From an uncultured Anaerolineaceae bacterium (GTDB lineage: Bacteria > Chloroflexota > Dehalococcoidia > Tepidiformales > Tepidiformaceae): a stretch of DNA of 43,918 nucleotides. The notes beneath the pieces were generated by a model. That model did no database searches and was not told where the DNA came from. It saw only the letters and a program-made list of their open reading frames with translations. Positions 4,367 to 41,379 of this stretch are shown in pieces. The stretch lies in NCBI GenBank assembly GCA_964448165.1, contig CAYUVT010000001.1, positions 10,351 to 54,268 on the forward strand, read 5' to 3'. A program made the translations under genes and the position numbers. Every line of letters starts with the position of its first letter. The stretch's first letter is position 1.

Positions 4367-4383
4367 TACTACGTATCGTAGTA
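4367..4383. promoter_or_regulatory. Operator-like dyad S2: TACTAC-N5-GTAGTA, 2 nt upstream of sortase ATG
   Basis: Perfect 6+6 palindrome read directly. No room for a Shine-Dalgarno, so the sortase mRNA may be leaderless or near-leaderless. Confidence 0.65.
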
Positions 4384-4468: not shown

Positions 4469-4485
4469 CACGACAACGTGTAGTA
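4469..4485. promoter_or_regulatory. Operator-like dyad S3: cACGAC-N5-GTAGTA upstream of lipoprotein gene
   Basis: One mismatch (C for T at position 1); 32 nt upstream of GTG 4517. Confidence 0.5.
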
Positions 4486-6611: not shown

Positions 6612-6628
6612 TACTACACGATATAGTA
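6612..6628. promoter_or_regulatory. Operator-like dyad S4: TACTAC-N5-aTAGTA upstream of the M50 gene
   Basis: One mismatch. On the minus strand it overlaps TACTAT (-10 candidate), about 110 nt upstream of ATG 6499. Confidence 0.5.
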
Positions 6629-7615: not shown

Positions 7616-8022
7616 GGATCGATGTCCGTCAGGTGGGCCCTGAGCTGAGCCAGGAACGTCGGGTTGAGTCGTTCGGCCTCCAGCAGGAAGGCCGAGAGGC
7701 CGGCATCGCCAAGCTTCACCATCGCGCCCGCCAGGAATTCCCCACGGCGCTCGGAGAACTGCTCACGCGACATTGTCGGTGCGTACACGTGCGCTTTCCC
7801 CTCGCCGCGGCGCGCAACGAGGCCCTTTTTGTGCAGGCGCTGCAGGACCGTAAGGATCGTGGTGTAAGCGAGACCTCTCGGATTACCGACCTCCGCGAAT
7901 ACCTCAGGGGTGGCTAATTCGCCCTTGTCCCACAACGCCGCAAGGACCTGTGCCTCGAGCTCGCCAACGGATATCGACTGTGCAGGCTCTTTCTCCGGGT
8001 TCATGACCTCATCGTAAGGCAT
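7612..8022 (-). CDS. BlaI/MecI/CopY-family winged-helix transcriptional repressor (no Cys)
   Basis: ATG 8022 after AGGAGGAGG. GELEAQVLAALWDKGELATPEV...LAYTTILTVLQRLHKKGLVARR...HVYAP is the family signature. The CopY C-terminal CxCx4CxC motif is absent. Confidence 0.9.
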   Translation of the reverse strand: MPYDEVMNPEKEPAQSISVGELEAQVLAALWDKGELATPEVFAEVGNPRGLAYTTILTVLQRLHKKGLVARRGEGKAHVYAPTMSREQFSERRGEFLAGAMVKLGDAGLSAFLLEAERLNPTFLAQLRAHLTDIDP

Positions 8023-8117
8023 GTCCTCCTCCTGCTGGACGGCCCACTTGGTACACGGGGAATTGGCCACTCGACCGTAGCCGCGGCACCGATCCCGGCT
8101 CACGCTAACGATGGTGA

Positions 8118-8134
8118 TACGACGGGGCGTAGTA
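8118..8134. promoter_or_regulatory. Operator-like dyad S5: TACGAC-N5-GTAGTA between repressor gene and divergent SHOCT/cupredoxin genes
   Basis: Matches the consensus perfectly. Overlaps TAGTAT (+ strand -10 candidate); about 95 nt upstream of the repressor ATG, so a likely autoregulatory site. Confidence 0.65.
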
Positions 8135-8262
8135 TTGCATGACGATGCCCGAGGCGGCTCGTCTTGTGCGGCCTTGTGCCGGCCCCGGCGAGCCGCATCA
8201 ATGCGGCGCGCGGACGGCCGCCGGGCAGAGCAAGCGCCGATCGCCGCGAAAGGAGCAGTTGC

Positions 8263-8487
8263 ATGTGGGGAGCACACGAGGGAATGGGATGGTGGATGCT
8301 GTTCGGTGGCGTTTTCTGGGTGTTATTCATCGTGACCTTGGTGTACCTGTTCACGAGCGCATTCGACCGCAGCTCTGGCACGACGGAGACACGATCAGAC
8401 ACACCACTGGAGATCGCGAAGCGCCGGCTCGCAGCCGGCGAGATCTCCCATGAGGAGTTCGACCGGCTGCGCGAGAAGCTTCGCTAG
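8263..8487 (+). CDS. SHOCT-domain small membrane protein
   Basis: ATG 8263 after AAAGGAG. MWGAHEGMGWWMLFGGVFWVLFIV TM segment, then the C-terminal SHOCT motif LEIAKRRLAAGEISHEEFDRLREKL. Confidence 0.75.
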   Translation: MWGAHEGMGWWMLFGGVFWVLFIVTLVYLFTSAFDRSSGTTETRSDTPLEIAKRRLAAGEISHEEFDRLREKLR

Positions 8488-8551
8488 GCCTGGGTCGCAG
8501 CAGCGGCGGATCGTCAGCGTGCCGGAGAGACCGGCAAGGGAGTAGTGACAG

Positions 8552-9010
8552 ATGCAATCCACAGGGACAGCGACACCGGGCCAGCAGCGAGCGCTCGTCT
8601 TGCTGGCCGTCGTACTGCTCCTCGGCATGCTGGTCGGGATCGCTGGCATGGCCATGTGGATGGCCGCCGCATGGCCCGGCGGCTGGGGCTTCGACCACAT
8701 GAACAGGATGATGGGCGGAGGGGGACGCGACAGCTCGCGCGACACGGCTGTACAGGGTTCGTTGGCCGAGACCATCAACATCGAGGACTTCGCCTACTCC
8801 CCCGGTAACCTTGAGGTGCCCGTGGGGGCGAGCGTGACCTGGATCAACCGCGACAGCGCGCCGCACTCGGCAACTGACCGGGACGGCTCCTGGGACACGG
8901 GGCTCCTGGCGCAGGGAGAGCGGGCCACGCTCGTCTTCGACGCACCCGGCACCTTCGACTACTACTGCACCGTGCACCCGAACATGAAGGCGCAGCTCGT
9001 TGTGCGTTAA
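8552..9010 (+). CDS. Membrane-anchored type-1 copper (cupredoxin/plastocyanin-like) protein
   Basis: TM anchor, Met/His-rich linker (FDHMNRMMGGGG), and cupredoxin ligands APHS...YYCTVHPNM (H, C, H, M). Confidence 0.85.
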   Translation: MQSTGTATPGQQRALVLLAVVLLLGMLVGIAGMAMWMAAAWPGGWGFDHMNRMMGGGGRDSSRDTAVQGSLAETINIEDFAYSPGNLEVPVGASVTWINRDSAPHSATDRDGSWDTGLLAQGERATLVFDAPGTFDYYCTVHPNMKAQLVVR

Positions 9011-9332: not shown

Positions 9333-10304
9333 ATGAAACGGGTTGCCGTGCTAACCAGTGGCGGCGACGCGCCCGGGATGAACGCTGCGATACGCGCCGT
9401 CGTGCGGAGCGGCATTCACAATGGTTGGGAGCTGGTCGGCGTGCGACGTGGCTACGCCGGGCTCATGTCCGGCGAGTTCGTGCCGCTCCGTGCGAGGGAT
9501 GTCGGCGGGATCATCCACCAGCCAGGGACCATGCTCGGGAGCGCTCGAGCCGCTGGCTTCAGGACCGCCGAAGGGCGTGAACAGGCCATCGAGCAGCTGG
9601 ACTCTCACGGGATCGGCGGGCTGGTAGTGATCGGGGGCAACGGCTCGCAGGCGGGCGCCGCGGCACTTAGTGAGCTGGGCGTAGCTGTGGTTGGAATCGC
9701 GTCGACGATCGACAACGACCTCCATGGATCGGATCAGAGTATCGGGGTGGACACGGCGCTGAACATTGCGCTTGAAGCGCTCGATCGTTTGAGAGCTACT
9801 GCTTCATCCCACGAACGCGCTTTCCTTGTCGAAGTCATGGGCCGCGATTGCGGATATCTCGCGCTCGTCGCAGCTATCGCCGGTGGGGCGGAGGCTGTCG
9901 TCATCCCGGAAGTCGATCGCGACCCGGATTCCGTCGTGCAGGAGCTACAGGCGGCGTACGAGCGGGGCAAGTCCCACGGGCTGGTCGTAGTCGCTGAGGG
10001 AGCGAGGTATGACGCGGAGGCGATCGCGCGGCACGTCAGGGAGCACCAGGATCAGGTCGGCTTCGAGCTGCGCGTGACGAAGCTCGGGCATGTCCAGCGC
10101 GGCGGAACTCCCACCGTCTTCGACCGATTGCTGGCCACCCAGCTCGGTGCCGCCGCCATCGACCAGCTCCATCTCGGCGCCGCTGGCAGACTCGTCGGCA
10201 TCCTCGGCGGGCGAGTTGCCACGACCCCGCTTGGCGAGGTTGCGAGCAAGACGAAGGAGCTCGACCACGGCCTGCTTGAACTGGCCCGCGTCCTCGCAGA
10301 CTGA
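9333..10304 (+). CDS. pfkA: ATP-dependent 6-phosphofructokinase
   Basis: MKRVAVLTSGGDAPGMNAAIRAVVR, IGGNGS, TIDNDL, MGRDCGYLAL; 323 aa. Confidence 0.95.
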   Translation: MKRVAVLTSGGDAPGMNAAIRAVVRSGIHNGWELVGVRRGYAGLMSGEFVPLRARDVGGIIHQPGTMLGSARAAGFRTAEGREQAIEQLDSHGIGGLVVIGGNGSQAGAAALSELGVAVVGIASTIDNDLHGSDQSIGVDTALNIALEALDRLRATASSHERAFLVEVMGRDCGYLALVAAIAGGAEAVVIPEVDRDPDSVVQELQAAYERGKSHGLVVVAEGARYDAEAIARHVREHQDQVGFELRVTKLGHVQRGGTPTVFDRLLATQLGAAAIDQLHLGAAGRLVGILGGRVATTPLGEVASKTKELDHGLLELARVLAD

Positions 10305-10429: not shown

Positions 10430-10446
10430 TACGACTTATCGTCGTA
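10430..10446. promoter_or_regulatory. Operator-like dyad S6: TACGAC-N5-GTCGTA
   Basis: Perfect palindrome, 30 nt upstream of ATG 10476, followed by GAGAGGAG. Confidence 0.65.
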
Positions 10447-10959: not shown

Positions 10960-12801
10960 TCACAGTGCATACGCGTGCTCGACGTATTGTTGCGCCATGC
11001 GATGCGCGTTGAAGAACGAACCATTGATGGCGATTGTCTGCTTCATGATGCGTGTCCACACGTCTGGGGTGCCGTAAAAGGCAGGCAGGACCGCATCCTC
11101 CAGCTTCGCGTATAAGTCCGCGCTGTCCGCGCGATCGGCCTCCTCCCCGTCCAAGGGATCGACCGCACCGATGGACCAGCCGGTGACACCCTCGACGTGA
11201 CCCTCACGCCACCAGCCATCGAGCACGCTGAGGCTCGGCACCCCGTTCAGCGCCGCCTTCATCCCTGAAGTCCCGGAGGCTTCGAGGGGCCGCAGCGGCG
11301 TATTCAGCCACACGTCGGCGCCGGCGGTGAGCTTGAGCGCGAGATCGAGGTCGTAGCCCTCGAGATACACGACGGGGAACTCTGCTCCGAGCCGTTCGGC
11401 GAAGGCCAGGACCTCGCGGATGACCTCCTTGCCTCCGCCGTCGTCCGGGTGGGCGATGCCCGCGAACACGAGCTGGAAGGGGCGGGTGCGCGCTATGGCG
11501 CGCAGGCGCTCGATGTCGCGAAAGATGAGGGTCGGACGCTTGTAGGCGGTTGCCCTCCGTGCGAAGCCGATGGTGAGGATGTTCGGATCCAGCCGGGCGC
11601 CGGCGCGGATCTCGGTTTCCTTGAGCAACGCACCCTTGGCTGCCACGTGGGCCGCCTTCAGTTCGGCATCTGGGAGCGCTGTCGCATTGCGGAGCATCCA
11701 GGGGTCGCTTCGCCAGCCGGGGATACGCCGGTCGAACAGCGCCTGGATGGGGCGGCTGGTCCACCGCTGCGAGTGCACGCCGTTCGTGATCTGATGGATC
11801 TCGTACTCGGGGAACATCGAACTCGAGACTTCGCGGTGGCGAAGGGCGACGCCGTTCACGTAGTGGCTGAGGTTCAGGGCGAGCGCCGTCATGTTGAGGT
11901 CGCCGCTCCCGGCCAGCATCTCCAGGACGGAGTCGTCGATGAAGCCCGGCAGGAGGTCGTGCAGCAGTGCACGGTCAAAGCGGTCGTGCCCGGCGGCGAC
12001 CGGGGTGTGCGTGGTGAACACGCAGCGACGACGTACGTCAGCGAAGTCCCACTCGCCGCCGCTCGCCACGCGCTGGCGCAGCAACTCCACCGGGACGAGA
12101 GCCGCGTGACCCTCGTTGAGGTGGAAGGTGGTCAGGCCGCTGCAGCCCAGAGCCTGGAGCAAGCGAACACCACCCAGCGCCAGCACGATCTCCTGCGCCA
12201 GCCGGTAGCGACGATCACCTCCGTAGAGGTGGTCTGTCAGCGTGCGGCTCCAGGCATCGTTCTCGGGATGATCCGTGTCGAGGAGGACGAGTGGCACGAC
12301 GTGCTCTCCAGACCCGACGAACGACGTTTGCCACCCGCCGACGTGGACGTCCTGGCCTTCGACCTGGACGGTGGTCTCGACTGGGAGTCGCTGGAGGGAC
12401 GCTTCAGGCGACCAGGGGGAGCGCTCGTCCTCCTGTGCTCCGTCCCGAAGGCGTTGTTTGACATACCCCATGTGGTGGACGAGCGAAACGCCAACCACGG
12501 CCACGCCGAGGTCGGCGCAGGCCTGCAGGTGGTCGCCGGCGAGGACGCCGAGGCCGCCGGCATAGGTCGGCGCGTTGGACCGGAACGCCACCTCCATCGA
12601 GAAGTACGCGACGCGGACGGAGGACCATGCGAGCGGGACTGCCGCGGTTCCAGGTCGACCGTAGGCGGCGCCGCGTCGCTCGAACTGGCGCCTGCAGAAC
12701 TCCGAGCAGAAGAAGAAGGTCTCGCCGTCCCTCTCCACTGGCAGCGCCGCCGCGGACTCGATCGGCATCTGGCAGACCGGGTCGGTGACTGTCATGCTCA
12801 A
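10960..12801 (-). CDS. glgP: Alpha-glucan phosphorylase (GT35) with N-terminal YHS/TRASH-like metal-binding domain
   Basis: N-terminus DPVCQMPIE...GETFFFCSEFCRRQFE. The core has FSMEVA...YAGGLGVLAGDHL and the PLP-lysine motif EASGTSGMKAALNGVPSLSVLDGWW. Confidence 0.9.
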   Translation of the reverse strand: MSMTVTDPVCQMPIESAAALPVERDGETFFFCSEFCRRQFERRGAAYGRPGTAAVPLAWSSVRVAYFSMEVAFRSNAPTYAGGLGVLAGDHLQACADLGVAVVGVSLVHHMGYVKQRLRDGAQEDERSPWSPEASLQRLPVETTVQVEGQDVHVGGWQTSFVGSGEHVVPLVLLDTDHPENDAWSRTLTDHLYGGDRRYRLAQEIVLALGGVRLLQALGCSGLTTFHLNEGHAALVPVELLRQRVASGGEWDFADVRRRCVFTTHTPVAAGHDRFDRALLHDLLPGFIDDSVLEMLAGSGDLNMTALALNLSHYVNGVALRHREVSSSMFPEYEIHQITNGVHSQRWTSRPIQALFDRRIPGWRSDPWMLRNATALPDAELKAAHVAAKGALLKETEIRAGARLDPNILTIGFARRATAYKRPTLIFRDIERLRAIARTRPFQLVFAGIAHPDDGGGKEVIREVLAFAERLGAEFPVVYLEGYDLDLALKLTAGADVWLNTPLRPLEASGTSGMKAALNGVPSLSVLDGWWREGHVEGVTGWSIGAVDPLDGEEADRADSADLYAKLEDAVLPAFYGTPDVWTRIMKQTIAINGSFFNAHRMAQQYVEHAYAL

Positions 12802-13898: not shown

Positions 13899-13914
13899 TA
13901 CGACGGACGTAGGA
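13899..13914. promoter_or_regulatory. Operator-like dyad S7: TACGAC-N4-GTAGgA
   Basis: One mismatch. Heads the minus-strand string small ORF-DUF2934-USP-YHS-GlgP. Confidence 0.5.
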
Positions 13915-15612: not shown

Positions 15613-15658
15613 CTGCGCCTCCTTCCTGAGACGGGTTACTTCGCCATCGACCCACCCG

Positions 15659-16497
15659 TCAGGTGACGCTCTTCGAAGGGGAACGTGTCGAACGATCGGC
15701 AGTGACGAGGCGGGCGCGTTTGCCCATGTACTCCACCCGCGAGATGAGGTTCACACGTGCCGCCCGCTTGTGATCGCCTCGAACAACCACCCAGGGCGAC
15801 TGGGGCTGTGTGTCCCGCGCAGCATATCGTCGCGGGCCTCGGTGTAGGCCGACGACTTCTCGATCGCAAGGTCGTCGATGGGGCTCAGCCTCCACTGCTT
15901 GAGGGGGTTCGTCTTGCGGTCGCGAAGGCGGCGCTCCTGTTCCTCGCGCGTGATGACGAGGTAGTACTTGAAGAGGCCGATCCCGGCGCGGATGAGCAGC
16001 TCCTCGAACTGCGCGACATCGCGCATGAACGCCTCGTACCCGGTCTGCGAGCAGCACCCCATGACGCGTTCGACACCGGCCCGGTTGTACCAGCTGCGAT
16101 TGAAGACGACGATCTCGCCGGCCGCTGGCAGATGCGCCACGTAGCGCTGGAAGTACCAGGAGGCGGTGTCCCTATCAGCCGGCTTGCCCAGGGCGACGAC
16201 CCTGGTCTCGCGCGGACTGAGATGCTGGACGAAGCGCTTCGCCACGCCGTCCTTGCCGGCGGCATCCCTTCCTTCAAGCACTACGAGGAACCGGGCGGCG
16301 CCGATGCTGCAGCAATCGCGCTGGAGCTTCACGAGTTCGACCTGCAGCTCGCGGAGCGCCTTCCGGTACCCGCCACTATTGCCTGTCTTGGCGGAGTGCT
16401 CGTCGGTACGCACTCGCTTGCGCGACGGCTCCGTCGCTCTCACTTCGCTCCCTTGGGACGTTGCCGTTGTGGATTTCTCAGTCATCGGGGACCGCAC
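15659..16497 (-). pseudogene. ppk2: Polyphosphate kinase 2, apparent -1 frameshift near 15814-15816 (or sequencing indel)
   Basis: ORF 15751-16497 has GRDAAGKDG, FNRSWYNRAGVERVMG and EEQERRLRDRKTNPLKQWRLSPID, then ends in non-family sequence. The conserved tail DTQPQSPWVVVRGDHKRAARVNLISRV continues in ORF 15659-16057. Adding one G to the GGG run joins them. Confidence 0.85.
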
Positions 16498-16663
16498 CCC
16501 TGCAGCGCGCGCCCCTCGCGCCGCTCACGATGGCGACCGTCAGGGGCCAGGTGATGAACGGCCCAGACAGACGACCAGGGAGGCTCCAGCGCTGCATGCC
16601 ACCATCAGCATGCGAATTCGCGGCAACGCCGCCGGACCCGTGACCGTGCTCCATTTGTTCCAT
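16478..16663 (-). CDS. His-rich leader mini-ORF (61 codons), translationally coupled to ppk2
   Basis: MEQMEHGHGSGGVAANSHADGGMQRW... The ATG shares its A with the dyad S8, and GGAG in the dyad spacer serves as SD. Its stop overlaps the ppk2 ATG 16485 (ATGACTGA). Confidence 0.45.
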   Translation of the reverse strand: MEQMEHGHGSGGVAANSHADGGMQRWSLPGRLSGPFITWPLTVAIVSGARGARCRGAVPDD

Positions 16664-16678
16664 ACGACCTCCGTCGTA
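16663..16678. promoter_or_regulatory. Operator-like dyad S8: TACGAC-N4-GTCGTA
   Basis: Perfect palindrome; the spacer on the coding (minus) strand is GGAG. Confidence 0.65.
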
Positions 16679-16952
16679 GTTTACAGCCGAAGGTCGAGCA
16701 GCATCCCCCGCGGCCACCAGGGCCGAAGCCCGCTCAACCGCTGGCCGCTCGCAGGCCAGCGAAGGGTTGGTCGTACCGTGCGGACGATGGAACTGTCCAG
16801 TGCGACCACGGAGGCCCACCCCACATGTCTCACCCGCACAGCGGCACCTCGATCTCGGAGTCACGCGCTGGAACGCTTGGTCATGCCACGCCTCCTCCTG
16901 CTGGCTGGGGGGCCGAACGGCCTCAGCCGCGTCGCCAAGCCTATCGTTGGCG

Positions 16953-16969
16953 TACGACTTGTAGTAGTA
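16953..16969. promoter_or_regulatory. Operator-like dyad S9: TACGAC-N5-GTAGTA upstream of cytochrome b
   Basis: GTAGTAGTA allows N2 or N5 registers. It overlaps TAATAT (16968-16973, -10 candidate), about 95 nt before ATG 17062. Confidence 0.6.
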
Positions 16970-17061
16970 ATATGCCCGTCCGGTAGCGTGCGTCTGCCGC
17001 CGTCGTGCGCAGGGGCGCCGGGGCGTTCGGACGGGAGCGGGAGTGAAGGAAGGTCCGGTCG

Positions 17062-18159
17062 ATGACACAGCAAGCGACGGATCCCGATGGCGGCCGAGTG
17101 TGGCGCTGGATTGACTCGCGGCTGGGGCTAGGGAGCCTCGCCTATCCGATCCCCGCCCATGCGAATAACGTCCTCTACACGCTCGGGGGCATCACTCTCT
17201 TCGGCATCCTCGTCCTGGTCGGCAGCGGGATCTACCTCACCCAGTTCTACCACCCCGACCCCACCCAGGCGCGAGAGAGCATCGCCTACATCATCACCAC
17301 CGCCCGACTCGGCGAGTACGTCCGCGGGCTGCACTTCTGGATGGCGAACCTCGTGGCGATCACCCTCCTCCTGCACCTCGTGCGGGTCTTCGCCACCGGG
17401 CGCCACGGGAGCTGAACTGGGTCGTCGGCGTCGGGCTGCTCGGTGTCATGCTTCGGCCTCGTCTTCACGGGGACGGTCCTCAAGTGGGACCAGGAAGGCT
17501 GGGAGGCACTCCAGCACAACCAGGAGGTCGGCGAGCTGCTCGGCGGCGCCGGCGTCTGGTTCACGCCAGAGTTCACCGACAGTACCCCGATCCTGGATCG
17601 GCTCTTCATCGCGCACATCGCGATCCTCCCGTTCTTGCTCGGAGGCCTCGCGCTGGTCCACATGCTGCTCGTGAAACACCACGGCATCTCGGCGCGGCCG
17701 GGCGAAGCGATCACCCACCCCGGGCACACGGATGCGCGCGAGGCAATGGAGCGCGAAGGCTACCGACCCTTCACGAGCCACCTGGTTCACATCGTGGGCT
17801 GGGGTCTCGTGGTAGCGGCGGCGGGCAGCCTCCTGGCCTTGGTCTTCGGGGCACCCCTCGGGGAGATCATCGACCCCAGCGAGGAGAAGACGAAGCCGCT
17901 CTGGATGTTCCTGCCCCTCTATCCGTTCGAGGACTGGTTTGGCATCAGAGCGCTGCTCTGGCTGCCGGTCGTCGCCCTCGTGGTGCTCGCGGCCGTGCCA
18001 TGGATCGACCGGTTCAGGTCGAGCGCGCTGCGGCCCCGCGCGCCGCTTCTCGTCGCTGGTATCGCCATCATCCTGGCGCTGGTCGGGCTTGGCATCTACG
18101 GACAAGTCTCCGCGCCTGCCGAGCACGTGCCGGGGGTTGAGGAGGAGAACACGGGATGA
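17062..18159 (+). pseudogene. Cytochrome b (b6 plus subunit IV-like fusion), frame broken twice within about 50 nt (or two sequencing indels)
   Basis: ORF 17062-17415 has helix B with HFWMANLVAITLLLH and ends RVFATGRHGS*. PRELNWVVGVGLLGV is in another frame (17400-17447). ORF 17443-18159 resumes with FGLVFTGTVLKWDQEGW and helix D AHIAILPFLLGGLALVH. The shifts lie at G-run 17398-17400 and near 17451. Confidence 0.85.
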
Positions 18160-18365
18160 GGCTGCTCGGCACGTTTGTTGTCCTGCTCGCCGTCGGCAGC
18201 GGCGCCCTCACCGTTGCCTGGGAGAGCCTCGCGCAGGCCGGCAACGGGCGGGTGACCGATTCAGTCGCCGGCCTGGCGGGCGGTGCCATTGCCTTGATCT
18301 CCCTGGTCCTCCTTTGCCGCATCGTGTACCGCGTTTCGCGGCCCACGCGACCCGAGGGATTGTAG
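18156..18365 (+). CDS. Small two-TM membrane protein
   Basis: ATGA overlap with the cytochrome b stop; two hydrophobic helices. Confidence 0.45.
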   Translation: MRLLGTFVVLLAVGSGALTVAWESLAQAGNGRVTDSVAGLAGGAIALISLVLLCRIVYRVSRPTRPEGL

Positions 18366-18367
18366 AG

Positions 18368-18877
18368 ATGCGAACGCTCGCGGCCATCGCCGTCCTCGTT
18401 GCGATTGGACTGCTCCCCGGCACTGTGGCCGCGCACGGTGACTCCACCGTCGCGGTAGCCGGGCATCCTCATGCAGATGGGCCGATTGAGGTAGAGGGAA
18501 GCGATTTCGAAGCCAACGAGGTCGTAACGCTCCAGCTGCGCAAGCAGGGGCAGGCGCCGGTGCTTCTGGGCTCGGTCCCGGTCGAGCCTGACGGCACATT
18601 CGAAGTAACGCTCCACGTGCCGGCGGAGGTGCGTCCAGGTCTCTACGAGCTTGTCGCCAATGCAGGGGACGAAAGCACGTCGGCGGAGGCGACGATTCTC
18701 GAGCCCCCGGGTGGGGCTATCTCGGGCTCCGGTGGGCCTCCGCTCGAAGACATCAGCAACGATCGGCCCGTGGCGGAGACTGCGGCCCTGGCAGTCGTCA
18801 CCGCCACCGTGGCCGCGGCAGGCGCAGGCATCATCCTGCTTGGCCACCGGAAGAGGCCACGTCCCTTCACGTCCTAA
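18368..18877 (+). CDS. Secreted Ig-like-fold protein with N-terminal His cluster and C-terminal hydrophobic anchor plus basic tail
   Basis: Signal peptide ...GTVAA/HGDSTVAVAGHPHADG. Beta-rich domain (IEVEGSDFEANEVVTLQL...PGLYELVA). C-terminus PVAETAALAVVTATVAAAGAGIILLGHRKRPRP. Confidence 0.6.
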   Translation: MRTLAAIAVLVAIGLLPGTVAAHGDSTVAVAGHPHADGPIEVEGSDFEANEVVTLQLRKQGQAPVLLGSVPVEPDGTFEVTLHVPAEVRPGLYELVANAGDESTSAEATILEPPGGAISGSGGPPLEDISNDRPVAETAALAVVTATVAAAGAGIILLGHRKRPRPFTS

Positions 18878-18958
18878 ACAGCCGAGACGTCCAGATGGAC
18901 TCCGGACACCGCCCCGATCGGCCTCCGCGAGCGCTGCCCCACGCTGGTATAGTCCGCC

Positions 18959-18974
18959 TACTACGGAGGTAGTG
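18959..18974. promoter_or_regulatory. Operator-like dyad S10: TACTAC-N4-GTAGTg, 5 nt after extended -10 TGgTATAGT (18945-18953)
   Basis: Read directly; spacer GGAG doubles as SD for GTG 18975. Paralogous to S11. Confidence 0.6.
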
Positions 18975-19235
18975 GTGCAACGACACGAGCATGATGACGA
19001 AGCGGGTCCCGAGCCACGGCGGTGGCTCAAGGGCGGGGCCACTCAAAGGAGGTCAGCAGTGCATCGGAAGCCAGCAACGCGATTAGGGAGCGACGCGGGG
19101 TGGCTCTGGCGTGCTATCCGCGGGCTGCTCGTTGGTATCGGGACGCCTATGGAGCCTCTCCCTATACCGATCGAGATTGACCGGACGGGCGATGTCGACA
19201 GTGAGGCGCTCCGGCGCGACCAGAGCCGCTGGTAG
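18975..19235 (+). CDS. Fusion of a truncated His-rich leader with a paralog of ORF 24428-24625
   Basis: VQRHEHDDEAGPE... matches the start of 24259-24405. The TM helix and stop are missing, and the frame runs into VHRKPATRLGSDAGWLWRAIRGLL...PIPIEIDRTGDVDSEALRR (own AAGGAGG plus GTG at 19059). That part is about 40 percent identical to 24428-24625. Confidence 0.45.
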   Translation: MQRHEHDDEAGPEPRRWLKGGATQRRSAVHRKPATRLGSDAGWLWRAIRGLLVGIGTPMEPLPIPIEIDRTGDVDSEALRRDQSRW

Positions 19236-19575
19236 CGACGTTCGAGTGTCCTAACCAGGGCAGAGAGAGGAGAGACGGGTAGCTCGAAAACGAGGGACCA
19301 GAAGATGAATCCGCTGAGAAACCAGCGTGGGACGACCCGAGCGTCTGGTCCGCGTCTCGAGGCGTCTGCTACGGTCGTGGGCCTGGTACTTCTTTGCTCG
19401 TGGCCAGCGACGCATTGTGGTGGGCGGTCACCCTTGAGATCGCAGCGACCGCCATCGGCATTGAATTCATCTGCACGGGCCTCAAGCGCTAATGCTGGCA
19501 GCATCAATGCGAGCGATGGCGTGGACGACGGCCTGGCGAAGCGCCGTGGGCTGCCAAACGACGAGGAGAAGGCTA

Positions 19576-20715
19576 ATGAGGATTGCGGTCATAGCCCCGC
19601 TCGTTGAGGCTGTCCCTCCGGAGCGTTACGGCGGCACAGAGCGTGTGGTGTCGGTTCTGACGGAGGAACTGGTGAGGCGGGGCCACCAGGTCACACTGTT
19701 CGCCAGCAGTGATTCCCGGACGAGCGCCGAGCTGATTTCCTCCGGGCCAAGGTCCTTGCGCGTGAACGGAGACGACCTCCTGCCTGCCGCATGGACGCTC
19801 TTGCAGCTTTCGGACGTGTTCGCATCGGCCAGCGAGTTTGACATCATCCACAATCACGTTGACTGGCCGGCCTTTCCATTCGCCCGGCTGGCGGCCACGC
19901 CAACGGTCTCAACCATGCACGGCCGCCTGGACCTACCATCCATCCGCAACACGTTTGGCCGCTTTCCCGAGCAACCGCTGGTCTCCATCAGCAGGGCGCA
20001 GAGCGAGTACCTGCCCGGCGCGAACTGGCTGGCGACCGTCCACAACGGAATAGCGCTGGATCACTTCCATTTCCAGCGGGAGCCAGGCGACTATCTGGTC
20101 TTCCTTGGACGGATCAGCCCCGAAAAGCGGCCTGACCGAGCAATCGAGATCGCCGGCCGTGCCGGCATGCGGCTCGTCATAGCGGCAAAGGTCGACCCCG
20201 TGGACAGGGACTACTACGAGTGCGAGATCGCGCCGCTGGTTCACCGTTCGCCCTGGGTCGAATTCATCGGCGAAGTGGACGAGGCCGAGAAAGACGAGCT
20301 TCTCGGCCACGCCTATGCCTATCTGTTTCCCATCGACTGGCCAGAGCCGTTCGGCCTTACCATGGTGGAGGCGATGGCGACGGGCACGCCCGTCATCGCC
20401 GCTCGCGCGGGCTCGGTCCCCGAGGTCGTGCACGACGGCGTGACCGGTTTCATCTGTGACGACACGGTCGAAATGGCAAGGGCGGTTGAGGACGTGAGTC
20501 GCCTGAACCGCGCTTCCTGCCGTTTGCGAGTAGAGCAGTGCTTCTCCGCTCAAGCCATGACGGACGGCTATGAGGCGGTGTACCGCCGCCTGGCCGGTCG
20601 TGACCGGCGGGCCTCGGGCCAGCTGTTCGCCGGCACCCGGGTGAATGGCGCTGCGAGCCCGGCCGTGGCTGAGGCGGGCCATCCAGCTGCAATCCTGATG
20701 GACGATCAGCAATGA
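19576..20715 (+). CDS. Family 4 (GT-B, group 1) glycosyltransferase
   Basis: ATG 19576 after GAGGAGAAGG. MRIAVIAPLVEAVPPERYGGTERVV...; C-terminal EPFGLTMVEAMATGTPVIA (EX7E region). Confidence 0.9.
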   Translation: MRIAVIAPLVEAVPPERYGGTERVVSVLTEELVRRGHQVTLFASSDSRTSAELISSGPRSLRVNGDDLLPAAWTLLQLSDVFASASEFDIIHNHVDWPAFPFARLAATPTVSTMHGRLDLPSIRNTFGRFPEQPLVSISRAQSEYLPGANWLATVHNGIALDHFHFQREPGDYLVFLGRISPEKRPDRAIEIAGRAGMRLVIAAKVDPVDRDYYECEIAPLVHRSPWVEFIGEVDEAEKDELLGHAYAYLFPIDWPEPFGLTMVEAMATGTPVIAARAGSVPEVVHDGVTGFICDDTVEMARAVEDVSRLNRASCRLRVEQCFSAQAMTDGYEAVYRRLAGRDRRASGQLFAGTRVNGAASPAVAEAGHPAAILMDDQQ

Positions 20716-20736
20716 GCTTCGCGATGAGGGGGCCCT

Positions 20737-23094
20737 TTGCTGGCTCGGGCCAGCCGCCGCCCCTCCGCCATCGCGGGAGGTGGAACCATAGCTCGACAGC
20801 GTTCAATCGATGATCTCCTGGCACCACCCTCCGACCCGTCCTGGTTTCTTGACGAGGATGGCTATGAGCCGGCCCTGGAGCACGAGGTGGAGTCCCGATT
20901 CGCCGTAGGCAACGGCTTCCTCGGCGTGCGGGGATCGCTGGAACAGCCCACGCGGTTTTCCCGGCCCCGGACCTATGTGGCGGGATTGTTCGTTGGATCG
21001 GAAGCTCGGCCGCCCGTTCCAGAACTGGTCTCGGCGCCAGACTGGCTGCGGCTGCGCGTGCTGGTCGACGGAGAGGAGCTCTCTCTCGAAGACGGTCAGA
21101 CGCTCGATCACGGCCGGACGCTCGACTTTCGCAGGGGTGTGCTGCACAGCCGACTGGAACAACGAGCTCAATCCGGCGTCACCGTTCGAGTCCGCGGCCT
21201 GCGGTTTGCATCGCTGTCAGAGCGGGTAGTGGCAGTCCAGCTCCTTGGGATTGACGTGGACAGGCCGGCACGGCTGCGCCTCGAACTCGTCCCGGGCCAA
21301 AGCTCCGAGGCCCTTGAGGTGAGGAGCCGCGGATCGGGCATAGCAGTCTACGCGCTCCGAAAACGGCCGGATCGACTGGCCATCGGCTCGAGGTCGCTCC
21401 TGCAGGTGGACGGCACCGCCCTCAGTAGCTCCGGCGCGGAGCCAGGACCTATGAGCTGGTCCTGGGATGCCAGGCCCGGACGCGGAGCCCGTTTCTCGCG
21501 GATTGTGGCCTTCGCCCGCGCCGAGTCGGAAGAGGCGGCCGCTCGCCGAGCAAGCGCGCACCTGGCAGCATCACCGGACGACCTCCGACGACGGTACGGC
21601 CGACACGTTGCGACCTGGCGCAGGCGCTGGTTGGAGAGCGATGTCCTCATCGAGGGTGATGAGGCGAGCCAGAAGGCGGTTCGCTTCGCAATCTATCATT
21701 TGATCAGCGCCGCGAACCCTGACGACGATCATGTCTCGGTGGGTGCAAGGGCGCTCAGCGGCGACGCCTACAAGGGCCACGTGTTTTGGGACACGGAGAT
21801 CTTCCTTCTACCGTTCTACACGTTCACCTGGCCGAAGGCGGCGCGCGCCATGCTCATGTACCGCTATCACACCCTGCCCGCAGCGCGCGCAAAGGCGGCG
21901 CACCTGGGTTACCGAGGTGCGCTCTATGCCTGGGAATCTGCCGACACCGGCGCGGAGACCACACCGCCTTTCGCCCTCGGGCCACAGCGACAGGTCATCT
22001 CTATCCGGTCCGGCGTCCTGGAGCACCATATCAGCGCCGATGTTGCTTACGCCGTTTGGCAGTACTGGCAGGCGACGGCCGACAGCGCCTTTCTGATCGC
22101 GGCCGGGGCTGAGATCCTCCTGGAAACGAGCCGCTTCTGGGCGAGCCGCGCTCTGCTGGAGGCTGATGGCCGGTACCACATCCGCGGCGTCATCGGGCCC
22201 GACGAGTACCACGAAGGCGTCGACGATAACGCCTACACGAACGTCATGGCCGCCTTCAACATCGAATGCGCCCTGGAAGCAGCGGCGCTCCTCAGGCGAC
22301 GATGGCCAGCTCCTTGGAGAGAGCTCAGCTCGCGCCTCGCGCTCACCGAGCAAGAGCTCGCTCTCTGGCGCGAGGTGCAAGAAGGACTGGTCACGGGTTT
22401 CGATGCGAGCACAAACCTGTTCGAGCAGTTCAAAGGGTTCTTCTCTCTGGAGCAGGTAGACCTCCGAGCTTACGCCAGCCGCACGGCACCTATGGATGTC
22501 GTGCTCGGGCCGGAGCGCACGCAGCTCTCGCAGGTGATTAAGCAGGCCGACGTTGTGATGTTGCTGGCCTTGCTCCGCGATCGTTATGAGCGGGCCGTGC
22601 ACGAGGCCAATTTTCGCTTCTACGAATCGCGGACTGGCCATGGCAGCTCACTCAGCCCACCCGTACACGCCGTCGTCGCGGCCCGACTGGGAGAGGTGGA
22701 CCTGGCCAAGCGGTTCTTCGACGAAAGCGCCGCGATCGATCTCGACGACACGATGGGAAACGCGGCCGGCGGCGTCCACATCGGCGCCCTGGGCGGGCTC
22801 TGGCAGGCCGCCGTCCTCGGCTTCGCCGGCCTTGAGCTTGAGAAGGGCGGCCTCCGGTTGCACCCGCACCTGCCGCCCGGCTGGCGGACACTGAGCTTCC
22901 CCGTCCAATGGCGCGGCAGGCTTGTTCGAGTCGAGGTAGAAGCGGAGGCGAAGCGCCTCTGCGTGAAGCTCGAGCGCGGCCAGCGAATGGAGATTAGCAT
23001 CGGCCCCTTGCGGCGCCGTCTTGAACCCGACAAGGGTCTCTCATTCGTGCAGGTCACAGATGGAAGCTGGGAGGAGGCCGCGCATGGCGGCTAA
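20737..23094 (+). CDS. GH65 glycoside hydrolase/phosphorylase (trehalose/maltose/kojibiose phosphorylase family)
   Basis: ESRFAVGNGFLGVRG, YKGHVFWDTEIFLLPF and ALYAWESADTGAETTP are typical GH65 blocks. The start (TTG 20737) is uncertain. Confidence 0.9.
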   Translation: MLARASRRPSAIAGGGTIARQRSIDDLLAPPSDPSWFLDEDGYEPALEHEVESRFAVGNGFLGVRGSLEQPTRFSRPRTYVAGLFVGSEARPPVPELVSAPDWLRLRVLVDGEELSLEDGQTLDHGRTLDFRRGVLHSRLEQRAQSGVTVRVRGLRFASLSERVVAVQLLGIDVDRPARLRLELVPGQSSEALEVRSRGSGIAVYALRKRPDRLAIGSRSLLQVDGTALSSSGAEPGPMSWSWDARPGRGARFSRIVAFARAESEEAAARRASAHLAASPDDLRRRYGRHVATWRRRWLESDVLIEGDEASQKAVRFAIYHLISAANPDDDHVSVGARALSGDAYKGHVFWDTEIFLLPFYTFTWPKAARAMLMYRYHTLPAARAKAAHLGYRGALYAWESADTGAETTPPFALGPQRQVISIRSGVLEHHISADVAYAVWQYWQATADSAFLIAAGAEILLETSRFWASRALLEADGRYHIRGVIGPDEYHEGVDDNAYTNVMAAFNIECALEAAALLRRRWPAPWRELSSRLALTEQELALWREVQEGLVTGFDASTNLFEQFKGFFSLEQVDLRAYASRTAPMDVVLGPERTQLSQVIKQADVVMLLALLRDRYERAVHEANFRFYESRTGHGSSLSPPVHAVVAARLGEVDLAKRFFDESAAIDLDDTMGNAAGGVHIGALGGLWQAAVLGFAGLELEKGGLRLHPHLPPGWRTLSFPVQWRGRLVRVEVEAEAKRLCVKLERGQRMEISIGPLRRRLEPDKGLSFVQVTDGSWEEAAHGG

Positions 23095-23938
23095 GCGCGC
23101 TCATCAGAAAATTGTCGTTGCCTGGGATGGATCGCAGCCGTCTGCTACTACGTTCCCGCTTGCCAACATCGTGGGTTCGCAGTTGGGCGCTGACGTCGAG
23201 ATCCTCCACGTCCTCGAGCCGGGAGCTTCCCCCGAGGAGTTTGCCGCGGCTGTACGCAAAGTCGGGCTCGACGGTCTGGAAGCTTCCATGCTTCGTGTCG
23301 AAACCGGCGATGTTGTGCAGACGATCCTCGCCGCGGCGGAGGAGCCAGACGTCGCCCTTGTGGTCCTGACCACCCATGTCACGGCCATCAAGGAGGGCCG
23401 GCACCTCGGCTCTGTAGCGCGGGCGGTGGTCCTCGGGACAGAAAAACCGGTTCTGCTCGTCCGTCCGGAGGCGCCAGCGAGCCGCGGTGAGATGCGACGC
23501 CTCCTGCTGCCAGCGGACGGCACGCCGAAGACGGCGATAGCGCTGGGACCCGCGACGGAGTTGGCCCGGCGCCTGGGCGCGGCGCTCGACCTGCTCTATG
23601 TCGCCGGGCCGCGAACACAGGTGCCTGACGAACGGGGCAGCATTCGCGCCCCCCGCTACGTGGACCAGCAGCAACACGAGTGGCCGAGTTGGGCTGACGA
23701 GGTCGGCGATCGCCTGGCACGGTCCTGCGCAAGCTGCCCCCCGGAGGTTCAAGTACAGGTGTTCTTGGCCCAGGGCAACATCAGCGCGGAGATCGAAAAC
23801 TTCGCCATTCAGCATAGCTCGGATGCGATCGTCCTCGTGCGTCGCAGCCGCTTGCAGGCTGGCCGGGCGCGGACACTGCGCTCATTGCTCGAGCGGGCAC
23901 CCTGCCCAGTGCTGATATTGAGCGGGCCCGAGGATTAG
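23084..23938 (+). CDS. Tandem-domain universal stress protein
   Basis: ATG 23084 after GGGAGGAGG, overlapping the GH65 end by 11 nt. Two USP repeats (KIVVAWDGS...; RLLLPADGT...). Confidence 0.85.
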   Translation: MAAKRAHQKIVVAWDGSQPSATTFPLANIVGSQLGADVEILHVLEPGASPEEFAAAVRKVGLDGLEASMLRVETGDVVQTILAAAEEPDVALVVLTTHVTAIKEGRHLGSVARAVVLGTEKPVLLVRPEAPASRGEMRRLLLPADGTPKTAIALGPATELARRLGAALDLLYVAGPRTQVPDERGSIRAPRYVDQQQHEWPSWADEVGDRLARSCASCPPEVQVQVFLAQGNISAEIENFAIQHSSDAIVLVRRSRLQAGRARTLRSLLERAPCPVLILSGPED

Positions 23939-24241
23939 CGCCCCAAGCGCGCTGTCAGGTCGGGCTCGCCCAGACGGATTGAATGCCCAGACGACGCGCA
24001 ATGATCGCCGGGACCGAGTGACGCCGCCAGGGACGGGAGCCGGACACCGCAGCCCGGATGGAGGATTCAGATCGAGGGGGCAGGGCAGCATCGGCTGCGA
24101 CGGGCGTGATCATCATCCTGCTTTGGGCGCCGTCGTTCGGCATATCCCCTGCCATCGTGAGCCCCCGAAACGTCCATCCGGGCCTGGGGGTAAGGACCGA
24201 TCGGCCTCCGCAGAGGTTGGCGCACGCTGCTATAGTGAACC

Positions 24242-24257
24242 TACTACGGAGGTAGTT
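24242..24257. promoter_or_regulatory. Operator-like dyad S11: TACTAC-N4-GTAGTt, 5 nt after extended -10 TGcTATAGT (24228-24236)
   Basis: Read directly; spacer GGAG doubles as SD for GTG 24259. Confidence 0.6.
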
Positions 24258-24258
24258 G

Positions 24259-24405
24259 GTGCAACCACACGAGCACGATGCGACAGAGGGCAAGGCCGGT
24301 CCCATGGACCATGGCGGGGGCGTTAAGGGCCTGCTTCTCATGGCGCTGTGTTGCCTCCCGATGATCGCTATCGCGGTCTTCGTGGTTGTCGGACTGCTCC
24401 GATGA
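24259..24405 (+). CDS. His-rich small TM peptide (48 aa) with CC-containing helix
   Basis: (M)QPHEHDATEGKAGPMDHGGGVKGLLLMALCCLPMIAIAVFVVVGLLR. SD lies inside the operator. The N-terminus is shared with 18975. Confidence 0.55.
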   Translation: MQPHEHDATEGKAGPMDHGGGVKGLLLMALCCLPMIAIAVFVVVGLLR

Positions 24406-24427
24406 CGATCAAGCAAGGAGCTGAGGA

Positions 24428-24625
24428 ATGCTTCGGAAACTCGCAAACGGGATAGCGTGCGGCCCAGGGCGGCTCTGGCGCTCAGTCCTCGGACACTTCG
24501 GCCCGATCGCCGCGCCGCCGGATGGTCGCCTTGTACCCATCGAAATCAGCGCGAGCGACGACGCCCGCCCGGAGGCGCTCTGCCGACGGGAGGATGAGCT
24601 TGATTGGGGCCACCACAGGCGATAG
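24428..24625 (+). CDS. Conserved hypothetical 65-aa protein (paralog of 19059-19235)
   Basis: ATG after AAGGAG. Shares GxLWR...PIEI...EAL positions with the other copy while the DNA has diverged, which argues for protein coding. Confidence 0.5.
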   Translation: MLRKLANGIACGPGRLWRSVLGHFGPIAAPPDGRLVPIEISASDDARPEALCRREDELDWGHHRR

Positions 24626-24659
24626 CCGGCGGGAGGCCAGCCACCAAGGAGCCACGAAA

Positions 24660-24956
24660 ATGAATGACAGACAGACTAATCTCGGGCCGCTGGAGCGGCT
24701 GGTGCGCGTCGCGGGAGGGGCTTTGCTCGCGACCGTGGGCGTGGTCCTTTTCGTGGCCGCAGATCCCTCGTGGTGGGTGGCGACGACCGAGGTCGCAGCC
24801 ATCCTTCTCGGCATCGATTTCGTCTACACGGGCGTCACGGGCTATTGCCCGCTTTACCACAGGCTCGGCTGGAGCACGCTCCGCCGCTCGCCGACCGTGG
24901 CGCCTCGCTCGGCACCGGGAGCAGAAGCGAAGCCGCCGGCATCCCTGCGCCGCTAG
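24660..24956 (+). CDS. DUF2892 (YgaP-like) membrane protein
   Basis: ATG after AAGGAG. NLGPLERLVRVAGGALL...GIDFVYTGVTGYCPLYHRLGWST is the DUF2892 signature. Confidence 0.8.
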   Translation: MNDRQTNLGPLERLVRVAGGALLATVGVVLFVAADPSWWVATTEVAAILLGIDFVYTGVTGYCPLYHRLGWSTLRRSPTVAPRSAPGAEAKPPASLRR

Positions 24957-25000
24957 CCGCGAATGAAAACCGGGCTAGCCACTCACTGGGAGGTGAACAG

Positions 25001-25249
25001 ATGGCTCGTGTGAAGGTGGTCATGCCGGTCTTCGATCTCTCCTGCGGGGGAGGGGGCTCCCGGCTCGTGGAGCACGTTATCAGGAAGCTGCCGGGCGTCG
25101 CGGACGTTTACGTCAACCCTGCCACCGAGATGGCATACGTTGAGTACGATCCGTCTGGCCTCACCCCAGAGCAAATCGGCGAAGCGATCGCCGAGGCAGG
25201 CTACAAGACCTCGTTGCCGGCTCGGGTGCTGCGAAAGACGGACTCCTGA
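25001..25249 (+). CDS. HMA-fold (ferredoxin-like) protein with degenerate metal site (single Cys, no CxxC)
   Basis: ATG after GGAGG. VKVVMPVFDLSCGGGGSRLVEHVIRKLPGVADVYVNPATEMAYVEYDP...IGEAIAEAGY follows the HMA beta-alpha-beta-beta-alpha-beta pattern, but GMTCxxC is replaced by LSCGGGG. Confidence 0.7.
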   Translation: MARVKVVMPVFDLSCGGGGSRLVEHVIRKLPGVADVYVNPATEMAYVEYDPSGLTPEQIGEAIAEAGYKTSLPARVLRKTDS

Positions 25250-33445: not shown

Positions 33446-33461
33446 TACTACGGTGGTCGTA
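33446..33461. promoter_or_regulatory. Operator-like dyad S12: TACTAC-N4-GTCGTA upstream of gap-ATPase operon
   Basis: Matches the consensus perfectly; 46 nt upstream of ATG 33400. Confidence 0.65.
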
Positions 33462-34231: not shown

Positions 34232-34247
34232 TACTACATCCGTCGTA
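34232..34247. promoter_or_regulatory. Operator-like dyad S13: TACTAC-N4-GTCGTA in divergent intergenic region
   Basis: Matches the consensus perfectly; lies between ATG 34190 (minus) and ATG 34371 (plus). Confidence 0.65.
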
Positions 34248-36947: not shown

Positions 36948-36963
36948 TACGACGTGCGTAGGA
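36948..36963. promoter_or_regulatory. Operator-like dyad S14: TACGAC-N4-GTAGgA upstream of FAD oxidoreductase
   Basis: One mismatch; the right half merges into GGAGGAG. Confidence 0.5.
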
Positions 36964-41279: not shown

Positions 41280-41379
41280 CGGCTCTGCCTCCTTACCCTG
41301 TAGACCTTGTCTTCGGTCGACTCCTTCGGTCCCGTCGCTCAATCGGACGAGAACGGACACGCCTCGGGCCCTTCCATCG

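Follow-up and report, generated by a model that had tools for sequence, protein, structure and literature searches.

The stretch of DNA analysed here (the window; 43.9 kb, 67% GC) is an island of copper/mercury-resistance and stress genes from a Dehalococcoidia-like bacterium, whose closest public genome is the Dehalococcoidia metagenome-assembled genome (MAG) GCA_023151015.1. Its metal genes comprise merR-merA, a P1B ATPase (with cupredoxin, HMA and YHS domains), a second HMA-ATPase, a cupredoxin and an HMA protein, and its stress and carbon genes a YHS-phosphorylase, four universal stress proteins (USPs), PPK2, DoxX, GT4, GH65, PFK, a GAPDH-like protein and a 2-oxoacid:ferredoxin oxidoreductase. 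At three loci, an inverted repeat with the four-nucleotide spacer GGAG (an N4 dyad) adjoins a start codon (coordinates in Table 1). The ATG of locus 1 overlaps the final two bases of its dyad and begins an open reading frame (ORF), mini-ORF1, that reads MEQMEHGHGSGG...; the dyad of locus 2 is followed by a GTG at 18975 (VQRHEHDDE...) and that of locus 3 by a TTG at 24256 and a GTG at 24259 (VQPHEHDATEGKAGPMDHGGG and a LLMALCCLPMIAIAVFVVVGLLR helix). An initial annotation of this DNA had reported the layout, and all of its coordinates and peptides are correct; it had also proposed a metal-related setting and read the dyads as operators, both of which are supported by our analysis.

The half-sites of these dyads belong to a motif class that is far above chance in the window. 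With up to one mismatch allowed, TACNAC-N4-GTNGTA is found at 7 sites where 0.12 are expected, and its counterpart with a five-nucleotide spacer (N5) at 8 sites where 0.19 are expected; no site has N3 spacing and one has N6 spacing, which is the chance level. At least 14 TAC(G/T)AC-N4/5-GT(C/A)GTA sites are spread over promoter regions across 44 kb. The dyads are also retained in related loci (designated here by L numbers): dyad 1, with the spacer GGGG, in L098-L100, and dyad 3 upstream of orthologues of the locus-3 gene, small48, in L001, L011, L012 and L098, its position being occupied in L009 and L010 by the N5 form TACTAC-GGGAG-GTCGTA. As loci 2 and 3 are paralogues of each other, 75% identical over ~540 nt, the GGAG cases within the window amount to two independent ones, not three.

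The window also encodes a candidate regulator, a winged-helix repressor of the BlaI/CopY/PetR family. It matches Pfam PF03965 with an E-value of 1.5e-23 (83.8 bits, cut-off 22.6), and its closest solved structure by sequence is Mycobacterium tuberculosis BlaI (PDB 2G9W, E 9e-11). The N5 dyad at 8118-8134 is probably the autoregulatory operator of this repressor, and in six independent loci from MAGs or metagenomes (L098, L104, L106-L109) a repressor homologue is preceded by an N5 dyad of identical half-site sequence. Judged by these sequences, the canonical operators of this regulator clade have N5 spacing, from which the three GGAG sites depart as N4 variants. The repressor gene would be co-transcribed with the overlapping gene of a putative membrane protease of 271 aa, which has HERAH at residue 137, hydrophobic segments at residues 4-29, 47-72 and 239-271 and no extracellular sensor domain; its Pfam matches are weak (M56, 19 bits against a cut-off of 31; M48, 15.8 bits against 20.3). 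Over positions 6800-9010, the petR-like repressor and petP-like protease genes stand divergent from SHOCT/plastocyanin-family cupredoxin genes, an architecture that matches the cyanobacterial PetRP copper switch but in a Dehalococcoidia-like lineage. Two other kinds of regulator were considered and set aside. A CsoR/RcnR-type operator, suggested by the pattern TAC...G-tract...GTA, was dropped after the Penicillinase_R repressor and its putative autoregulatory dyad had been found, and none of the window ORFs run against Pfam matches the CsoR family (PF02583); a DosR-type dormancy regulon, to which the USP, PPK2 and ferredoxin-oxidoreductase genes could have pointed, was set aside on a motif unlike the DosR box.

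The arrangement resembles PetR/PetP of Synechocystis sp. PCC 6803 (Slr0240/Slr0241). In Synechocystis, petR and petP overlap by their stop and start codons, copper triggers the degradation of PetR, and the PetR operator has the invariant core GAC-N5-GTC (bioRxiv 10.1101/2020.07.31.226407); the sites bound by Clostridium thermocellum BlaI_0696 are inverted repeats of 6 bp with 5 nt in between (PMC8457756). The window has in common with PetR/PetP a BlaI/CopY-family repressor that lacks the CopY Cys motif, a downstream gene that overlaps it and whose product is a putative HExxH membrane protease of the M48/M56 kind without a beta-lactam sensor domain, the GAC-N5-GTC core (contained in TACGAC-N5-GTCGTA), an adjacent plastocyanin-family cupredoxin gene and a regulon that, by its genes, is copper-related. 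It differs in its non-photosynthetic, Dehalococcoidia-like lineage, in a much larger regulon (~14 sites in 44 kb) that takes in copper/heavy-metal ATPases, USPs and carbohydrate genes, in the presence of a second, N4 class of site, and in operators that would lie at +1 with a Shine-Dalgarno (SD) sequence inside them, not between -35 and -10. The M. tuberculosis BlaI/BlaR pair (Rv1846c/Rv1845c) provides the closest solved structure and likewise has a sensor-less BlaR partner and a regulon beyond beta-lactamase, but belongs to another phylum and controls another set of genes. Its motif is reportedly (Sala et al. 2009) of the TAC(G/T)AC...GT(A/C)GTA type.

CopY belongs to the same protein family as the window repressor and represses a copper P-type ATPase operon via a short dyad near the promoter (PMC11672702). 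However, CopY and its cop box (Enterococcus hirae, Lactococcus, Streptococcus) differ from the present system in having TACA/TGTA half-sites and in that CopY is itself the direct sensor of Cu(I)/Zn(II), by means of a CxCx4CxC at its C-terminus. Cys is absent altogether from the predicted 136-aa repressor, which hence has neither CxCx4CxC nor CxC (its C-terminus is ...LAQLRAHLTDIDP), and with the CopY_TcrY model (TIGR02698) it scores 38.6 bits, under the cut-off of 121.95. On both counts, CopY proper, a direct copper sensor, was ruled out.

From these observations we hypothesize, and consider likely, that the GGAG dyads are N4-spaced operators of the BlaI/CopY/PetR-family repressor encoded at 7612-8022(-), that they are placed at +1 with a spacer that doubles as SD, and that the hairpin they can form in RNA is a by-product. 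By analogy with PetR/PetP, the protease would degrade the repressor upon copper or related metal/thiol stress, derepressing all sites. An apparently exotic element would in this way become a testable and mostly conventional one, a +1 repressor operator whose spacer is reused as a ribosome-binding site. Since the canonical N5 spacing is found at none of the three GGAG sites, all of which are N4, we class them as variant operators of the BlaI/CopY/PetR system and not as textbook members.

The putative promoters at loci 2 and 3 are the basis for the proposed position at +1. The extended -10 element upstream of both dyads, TGnTATAGT, is kept, with substitutions, at the small48 orthologues in L001, L011 and L012, and the usual distance of 7 nt from it predicts a transcription start site (TSS) close to base 2 of the dyad. 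On this prediction the operator would occupy +1 to +16, and bound repressor would block RNA polymerase. With the start codon adjoining the dyad, the operator would itself be the 5' untranslated region (UTR), and because such a UTR is scarcely more than the operator, the SD would have to lie within the spacer, which varies among sites, is presumably unread by the repressor and is here GGAG(G). GGAGG ends 5-6 nt upstream of the start codon and there is no alternative SD, in agreement with the earlier proposal that the SD lies inside the operator spacer. Operators in the initially transcribed region that extend over the ribosome-binding site, such as lac O1 (+1 to +21), are well known: their repression blocks RNA polymerase, and the transcribed palindrome may fold without function. 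Our case differs from the lac O1 type in a UTR so short that the SD sits in the central spacer of the dyad, and in that this is seen with two small-protein families of one regulon.

The layout with the SD in the spacer was noted by the initial annotation at three loci, and it recurs both in relatives and in the second of these gene families. The latter is found on the minus strands of L106 (~9540-9770), L107 (4038-4265) and L109 (~940-1170) and consists of proteins of ~75 aa with two transmembrane (TM) segments, a motif MMxVCC and a His-rich C-terminus, encoded divergently from repressor homologues. Its start codon lies 3 nt past an N5 dyad in all three, and the spacers GTGGA, ATGGA and ATGAG, together with the G of the half-site, give GGAG or GAGG in three lineages. 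The gene is missing at the equivalent position of the window (8135-8261). The SD-in-operator layout thus generalises, and its simplest reading is space economy in very short leaders, with no special mechanism.

An alternative account is that the transcripts are leaderless or near-leaderless, starting within or just past the dyad, and that GGAG is not an SD but reflects operator preference or shared ancestry. At locus 1 the sole -10-like hexamer, TAAACT, overlaps dyad base 1, and in L107 a -10-like hexamer likewise abuts it, both predicting a TSS in the spacer; many dyads have an ATG within 0-5 nt and no SD, for example at the sortase gene (dyad at 4367), and the TA that ends a dyad can be read with the following nnAT as a -10 box (TACGAT, TAATAT, TATTAT). 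Nevertheless, GGAG or GAGG is a feature of just those spacers that have the start of a real gene within 0-6 nt, which holds for two unrelated families with differing spacers, whereas at sites away from start codons the spacers vary freely (GGTG, ATCC, GTGC, TTATC, GTATC and others). Moreover, the conserved extended -10 upstream of the small48 dyad puts the whole SD in the transcript, and other genes of the window use canonical SDs. We therefore regard leaderless transcription as an improbable explanation of the GGAG spacers.

Several points weigh against the hypothesis of +1 operators read by this repressor. The three sites are N4 while the regulator clade and PetR use N5, and binding of the repressor to N4 is a prediction. 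The M56 match of the protease is under the Pfam gathering score, and the inducing signal is proposed from analogy and gene content alone. A simple consensus sigma-70 scan gives no promoter at any of the three loci, and the TSS positions come solely from reading the conserved TGnTATAGT as an extended -10; at locus 1, TAAACT would place the TSS inside the spacer and GGAG at the extreme 5' end. Finally, a syntenic locus on a Rhodococcus plasmid, described below, has no TACNAC dyads, and the operator sequence would therefore be clade-specific.

The first of these points could mean that the N4 sites are bound by a paralogous BlaI-family protein encoded elsewhere in the genome and that N4 and N5 form separate regulons. 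N4 and N5 sites are each enriched in their own right, the dyads near repressor genes of distant relatives are mostly N5 and N4 is confined to few genes, and the N4 spacers are G-rich (GGAG, GGAC, GGTG, GGAT, GTGC), unlike those of N5. However, the half-site consensus is identical for N4 and N5, the operator of orthologous small48 genes switches between the two spacings among relatives, and no second Penicillinase_R gene is present among the subset of window ORFs that were run against Pfam; a second regulator is in our view unlikely. As five lineages have N4 GGAG at the small48 promoter where L009 and L010 have N5 GGGAG, we infer that one regulator reads both N4 and N5.

Table 1. Positions of the three GGAG dyads, their putative promoters and adjoining genes, the repressor and protease genes, and the other dyads of the window
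Feature	Position	Strand	Remarks
Operator dyad 1 (N4)	16663-16678	-	TACGAC-GGAG-GTCGTA; GGAGG would be the SD for ATG 16663
Operator dyad 2 (N4)	18959-18974	+	TACTAC-GGAG-GTAGTG; paralogue of dyad 3
Operator dyad 3 (N4)	24242-24257	+	TACTAC-GGAG-GTAGTT
Extended -10 (TGgTATAGT), locus 2	18945-18953	+	5 nt upstream of dyad 2; read from sequence
Extended -10 (TGcTATAGT), locus 3	24228-24236	+	5 nt upstream of dyad 3
BlaI/CopY/PetR-family winged-helix repressor	7612-8022	-	Pfam Penicillinase_R (PF03965)
Putative sensor-less HExxH membrane protease (PetP/BlaR1-like)	6800-7615	-	GTG start overlaps repressor TGA stop (GTGA)
small48, 48-aa single-TM protein, first cistron of the operon	24259-24405	+	His/Gly-rich tail, CC-x-PM motif
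Rest of small48 operon	24428-25249	+	65-aa protein 24428-24625; YgaP-like/DUF2892 TM protein 24660-24956; HMA protein 25001-25249
mini-ORF1, 61 codons	16478-16663	-	Stop overlaps ppk2 ATG by 8 nt
ppk2 (PPK2 domain)	15751-16485	-	Pfam PF03976, E 7.6e-74
Degenerate small48 duplicate	18975-19235	+	small48 N-terminus reads through into paralogue of the 66-aa second gene
GT4 glycosyltransferase, GH65 phosphorylase, USP	19492-23938	+	Pfam; now downstream of locus-2 promoter/operator
N4 dyad	13899-13914		Spacer GGAC; kept in L099
N4 dyad	33446-33461		45 nt upstream of GAPDH-like gene
N4 dyad	34232-34247		Between divergent genes for a DUF2934 protein and an unknown protein
N4 dyad	36948-36963		Between merR and flavoprotein gene; GGAG directly after
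N5 dyad	4367-4383		2 nt upstream of sortase gene ATG
N5 dyad	4469-4485		One mismatch; shares divergent intergenic region with 4367 dyad
N5 dyad	6612-6628		Upstream of M50/CBS peptidase gene; kept in L098
N5 dyad	8118-8134		Between repressor gene and divergent SHOCT/cupredoxin genes
N5 dyad	10430-10446		TACGAC-TTATC-GTCGTA; upstream of 10476 ORF; kept in L098
N5 dyad	16953-16969		Upstream of split cytochrome b operon, in intergenic region of dyad 1; kept in L098, L099
N5 dyad	41380-41396		One mismatch; immediately upstream of cupredoxin-HMA-P1B-ATPase-YHS gene

The model put forward in the initial annotation was that the dyad could be a dual-level switch, acting as DNA operator and as an RNA hairpin that gates the SD, ahead of three His-rich leader peptides like metal-binding N-termini; in its full form, these peptides would be regulatory and sense metal. 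The 6-bp hairpin is indeed predicted, in context as well as in isolation, and the isolated 16-mers (-5.1, -4.6 and -6.8 kcal/mol at loci 1 to 3) fold better than shuffled sequences (z about -3.3 to -3.5). Folded from the predicted TSS, however, the stems reach only -4.2 to -4.8 kcal/mol, the folds in context do not surpass those of shuffled sequences (z -0.03 to -1.2), the hairpin of the L009 orthologue has only -2.5 kcal/mol, and the fourth (variable) half-site position is complementary in 6 of the 14 window sites, about as often as by chance. Stems near -5 to -6 kcal/mol at a ribosome-binding site are said, after de Smit and van Duin, to be at the threshold of any effect. With the predicted TSSs, the left arm of the stem may moreover be untranscribed in part or whole, at locus 1 because the TAAACT candidate overlaps dyad base 1. 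Rfam has no match in the whole window or in a sensitive scan of 16300-19400, no terminator-like site occurs in 16400-19300, and no alternative structure was found. The hairpin therefore exists as a predicted fold, but it is weak, is not conserved and lacks specific support as a translational control; it looks like a by-product of operator symmetry, with at most a minor role as a 5'-terminal stabilising stem.

A dual-level switch would also be in keeping with the conservation of the SD in the spacer, with the 8-nt overlap of mini-ORF1 and the ppk2 start, and with a mini-ORF1 frame that is open and free of indels in a relative in which the 230 nt upstream have two. The three ORFs, however, are not equivalent leaders: that of locus 3 is a conserved membrane protein, that of locus 2 a degenerate gene remnant, and that of locus 1 evolves without sign of purifying selection, one of its His residues being replaced in a relative (H8D). 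Taking the hairpin and the peptides together, we consider the dual-level switch highly improbable and retain the +1 operator of a BlaI/CopY/PetR-family repressor as the likely explanation of the dyads.

Judged by its homologues, small48 at locus 3 is a genuine conserved gene and not a leader. Six close homologues were found; small48 is the first cistron in every contig long enough to show the upstream flank, and in all of the contigs it is followed by a 51-68-aa protein, a YgaP-like/DUF2892 protein and, further downstream where the contig reaches, an HMA protein, the gene order of the operon being kept in L001-L012. Against three orthologues, the ratio of non-synonymous to synonymous differences (pN/pS) is 0.22-0.35, and 0-0.24 in the helix part, so that conservation of the peptide among relatives, one of the checks that the initial annotation had called for, holds at this locus as purifying selection. 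A profile search of 1.84 billion representatives returned 18 clusters of 38-58-aa proteins and a few longer calls, and the family thus comprises at least 18 clusters at 50% identity. In an alignment of 23 sequences with the motif M-x-L-C-C-x-P-M, there is no variation at the M, the first Cys or P-M, 22 sequences have the second Cys and 20 the L, and GHG precedes the helix in 17-18. The N-terminal tails are variable in sequence and consist of 11% His and 25% Gly over the 23 members; the His-richness noted in the initial annotation is accordingly a compositional trait of this one family and not a feature of three equivalent peptides. The locus-3 protein scores 83 bits to the hidden Markov model (HMM) of the family and has a Kyte-Doolittle maximum of 2.97.

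Small48 has no match in Pfam (E<=1) or NCBIfam (E<=0.1), MerT/MerF included, and the family is unannotated. At the level of motifs it resembles MerF/MerT in a near-invariant CC followed by x-P in a single TM helix, in its HMA neighbour and in the presence of merR-merA in the window, but it is much shorter (48 aa, one TM) and matches no family model. Small48 is plausibly a thiophilic-metal handling protein. The HMA-domain protein of its operon (25001-25249) has SCGGGGS in place of the usual GMxCxxC metal site and a single Cys. Among the 18 representative clusters, the sole evidence for operator conservation comes from the member P0130: its read-through N-terminus, TTTEVVV, corresponds to the translation expected from TACTACGGAGGTAGTGGTG. 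Rhodococcus plasmids carry a 92-aa CC-x-PM member (33 bits to the small48 HMM) between a DUF2892 gene and a heavy-metal ATPase; it is annotated as hypothetical on the R. rhodochrous plasmid NZ_CP120357.1 (120802-132921; L112), where the gene set mirrors that of the window, with phosphoketolase, GH65/beta-PGM-type, DUF2892, CC-x-PM, heavy-metal ATPase, type II GAPDH, BlaI and M56. A comparable neighbourhood is thus present outside the phylum of the window. The CC-x-PM, His/Gly-rich small proteins form an unannotated family whose genes have DUF2892, HMA and heavy-metal ATPase genes as consistent neighbours.

At locus 1, the overlap between mini-ORF1 and ppk2 that had been noted earlier is real (ATGACTGA, 16478-16485), and ATG 16485 is supported as the start of ppk2 by an orthologue of 91% identity with the N-terminus MTEKSTTAT. 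Among 5.8 billion clusters, the homologues of mini-ORF1 are identical copies only; its single informative relative, L098, was reached via a protein search with ppk2, and the relatives of the ppk2 locus in species genomes, matches of <=63% identity from unrelated phyla, are uninformative on mini-ORF1. In L098 the frame is open and has the same stop, with 11 substitutions (3 synonymous, 8 non-synonymous) that include G7C and H8D. The pN/pS of 0.86, with the same ratio in all three frames, compares with 0.27-0.31 in control genes, so that the conservation expected of a functional peptide does not extend to mini-ORF1, which evolves neutrally. GC by codon position is.68/.60/.74 in mini-ORF1, which is not the pattern of coding DNA, vs.63/.48/.84 in ppk2, and mini-ORF1 has no TM segment. 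A possible origin as a decayed small48 paralogue was rejected: the HMM gives E 0.15 among 833 window ORFs, and in local DNA and protein alignments 342 of 500 and 350 of 2000 shuffles, respectively, scored at least as high. As far as its substitutions tell, mini-ORF1 probably has no function as a peptide. Its translation is nonetheless possible, serving solely to couple ribosomes to ppk2, because the SD of ppk2 itself is poor and the overlap ATGACTGA is typical of coupling. As a short ORF directly upstream of and overlapping a structural gene, locus 1 is like the classical leader peptides and upstream ORFs (trpL, hisL, ermCL), from which it differs in having no regulatory codon run, no terminator/antiterminator and no peptide conservation; loci 2 and 3 are not leaders. 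A leader-peptide attenuator was likewise ruled out, as neither peptide nor codons are conserved and there is no terminator. Near its 3' end (15636-16057), ppk2 is frameshifted relative to a 288-aa orthologue (P0008), and its C-terminal ~45 residues can be read in two other frames.

At locus 2, alignment of the DNA with locus 3 shows a ~74-nt deletion that removes the TM helix, and the frame continues into a second-gene paralogue that has retained an SD and a GTG start (19059) of its own. The two second-gene proteins, of 58 and 65 aa, are 37% identical (E 8e-9), and remnants of the third gene follow. The ~540-nt duplication (18880-19610 vs 24160-24960) takes in the promoter, the operator and the genes at the head of the small48 operon, and a GT4-GH65-USP cassette is inserted between its two copies. 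The MAG contig L098 has an operon of cytochrome b, a 69-aa and a 169-aa protein, followed directly by the small48 operon, and lacks both the cassette and the extra copy; in the window and in L001, GT4-GH65-USP has been inserted along with the extra promoter copy. Locus 2 looks like promoter capture by duplication or recombination, in which a decayed copy of the promoter and gene start would now drive GT4-GH65-USP, and would offer a worked example of how a promoter and operator can be captured through duplication, together with an inserted gene cassette. The neighbouring cytochrome b gene is split by a frameshift into ORFs of 117 aa (17062-17415) and 238 aa (17443-18159); the split is present in all independent assemblies of the population (L013-L017), and the gene is intact in L098 (320 aa) and L009 (369 aa). 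Together with the ppk2 frameshift and the decay of locus 2, it suggests gene decay in the island.

Beyond the three GGAG sites the window has about 11 dyads, and a total of ~14 in 44 kb is unusually dense for one BlaI/PetR-type repressor. An ATG stands 2-5 nt past many of them (16972, 41377 (-), 36968, 8139, 34253 and 4364 (-)), where it opens very short ORFs (4, 12 or 21 codons) or genes without SD, such as the sortase gene; the dyad at 36948 and the GGAG after it lead into a 21-codon Cys-rich ORF (MTGYHPRECRACSPPGGWSRQ, followed by a stop). So dense and recognisable a regulon suggests a control of metal resistance by protease-dependent regulators of the BlaI family that extends far past the plastocyanin switch of cyanobacteria. 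As a tentative extension, which we hold to be possible but doubtful as a whole, a proteolytic metal switch of a BlaI/PetR-type repressor and a sensor-less BlaR/PetP-type protease would operate outside cyanobacteria on a large copper/mercury and dormancy-like regulon in Dehalococcoidia; the spacings N5 and N4, the latter with its SD in the spacer, would grade the response, and the first induced products would be small vicinal-Cys, His/Gly-tailed membrane proteins for thiophilic metals. Similar gene sets are carried on Rhodococcus plasmids. The main interest of the window lies in this extension of PetRP-like proteolytic control to a large Chloroflexota metal regulon and in the CC-x-PM family.

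Three further metal- or YHS-related genes of the island deserve mention. The merR-merA pair lies at 34963-36818 (-), with a MerA that has the GGTCVNVGCVPSK active site and the C-terminus ...MTCCIG, and no recognisable merT or merP is near it. The P1B-type ATPase encoded at 38289-41360 (-) has 1023 aa, with an N-terminal cupredoxin-like domain, HMA and a C-terminal YHS domain, and its GTG start follows an N5 dyad at a distance of 20 nt. At 10960-12801 (-), a glycogen-phosphorylase-like protein has a YHS metal-binding domain fused at its N-terminal end, an odd combination.

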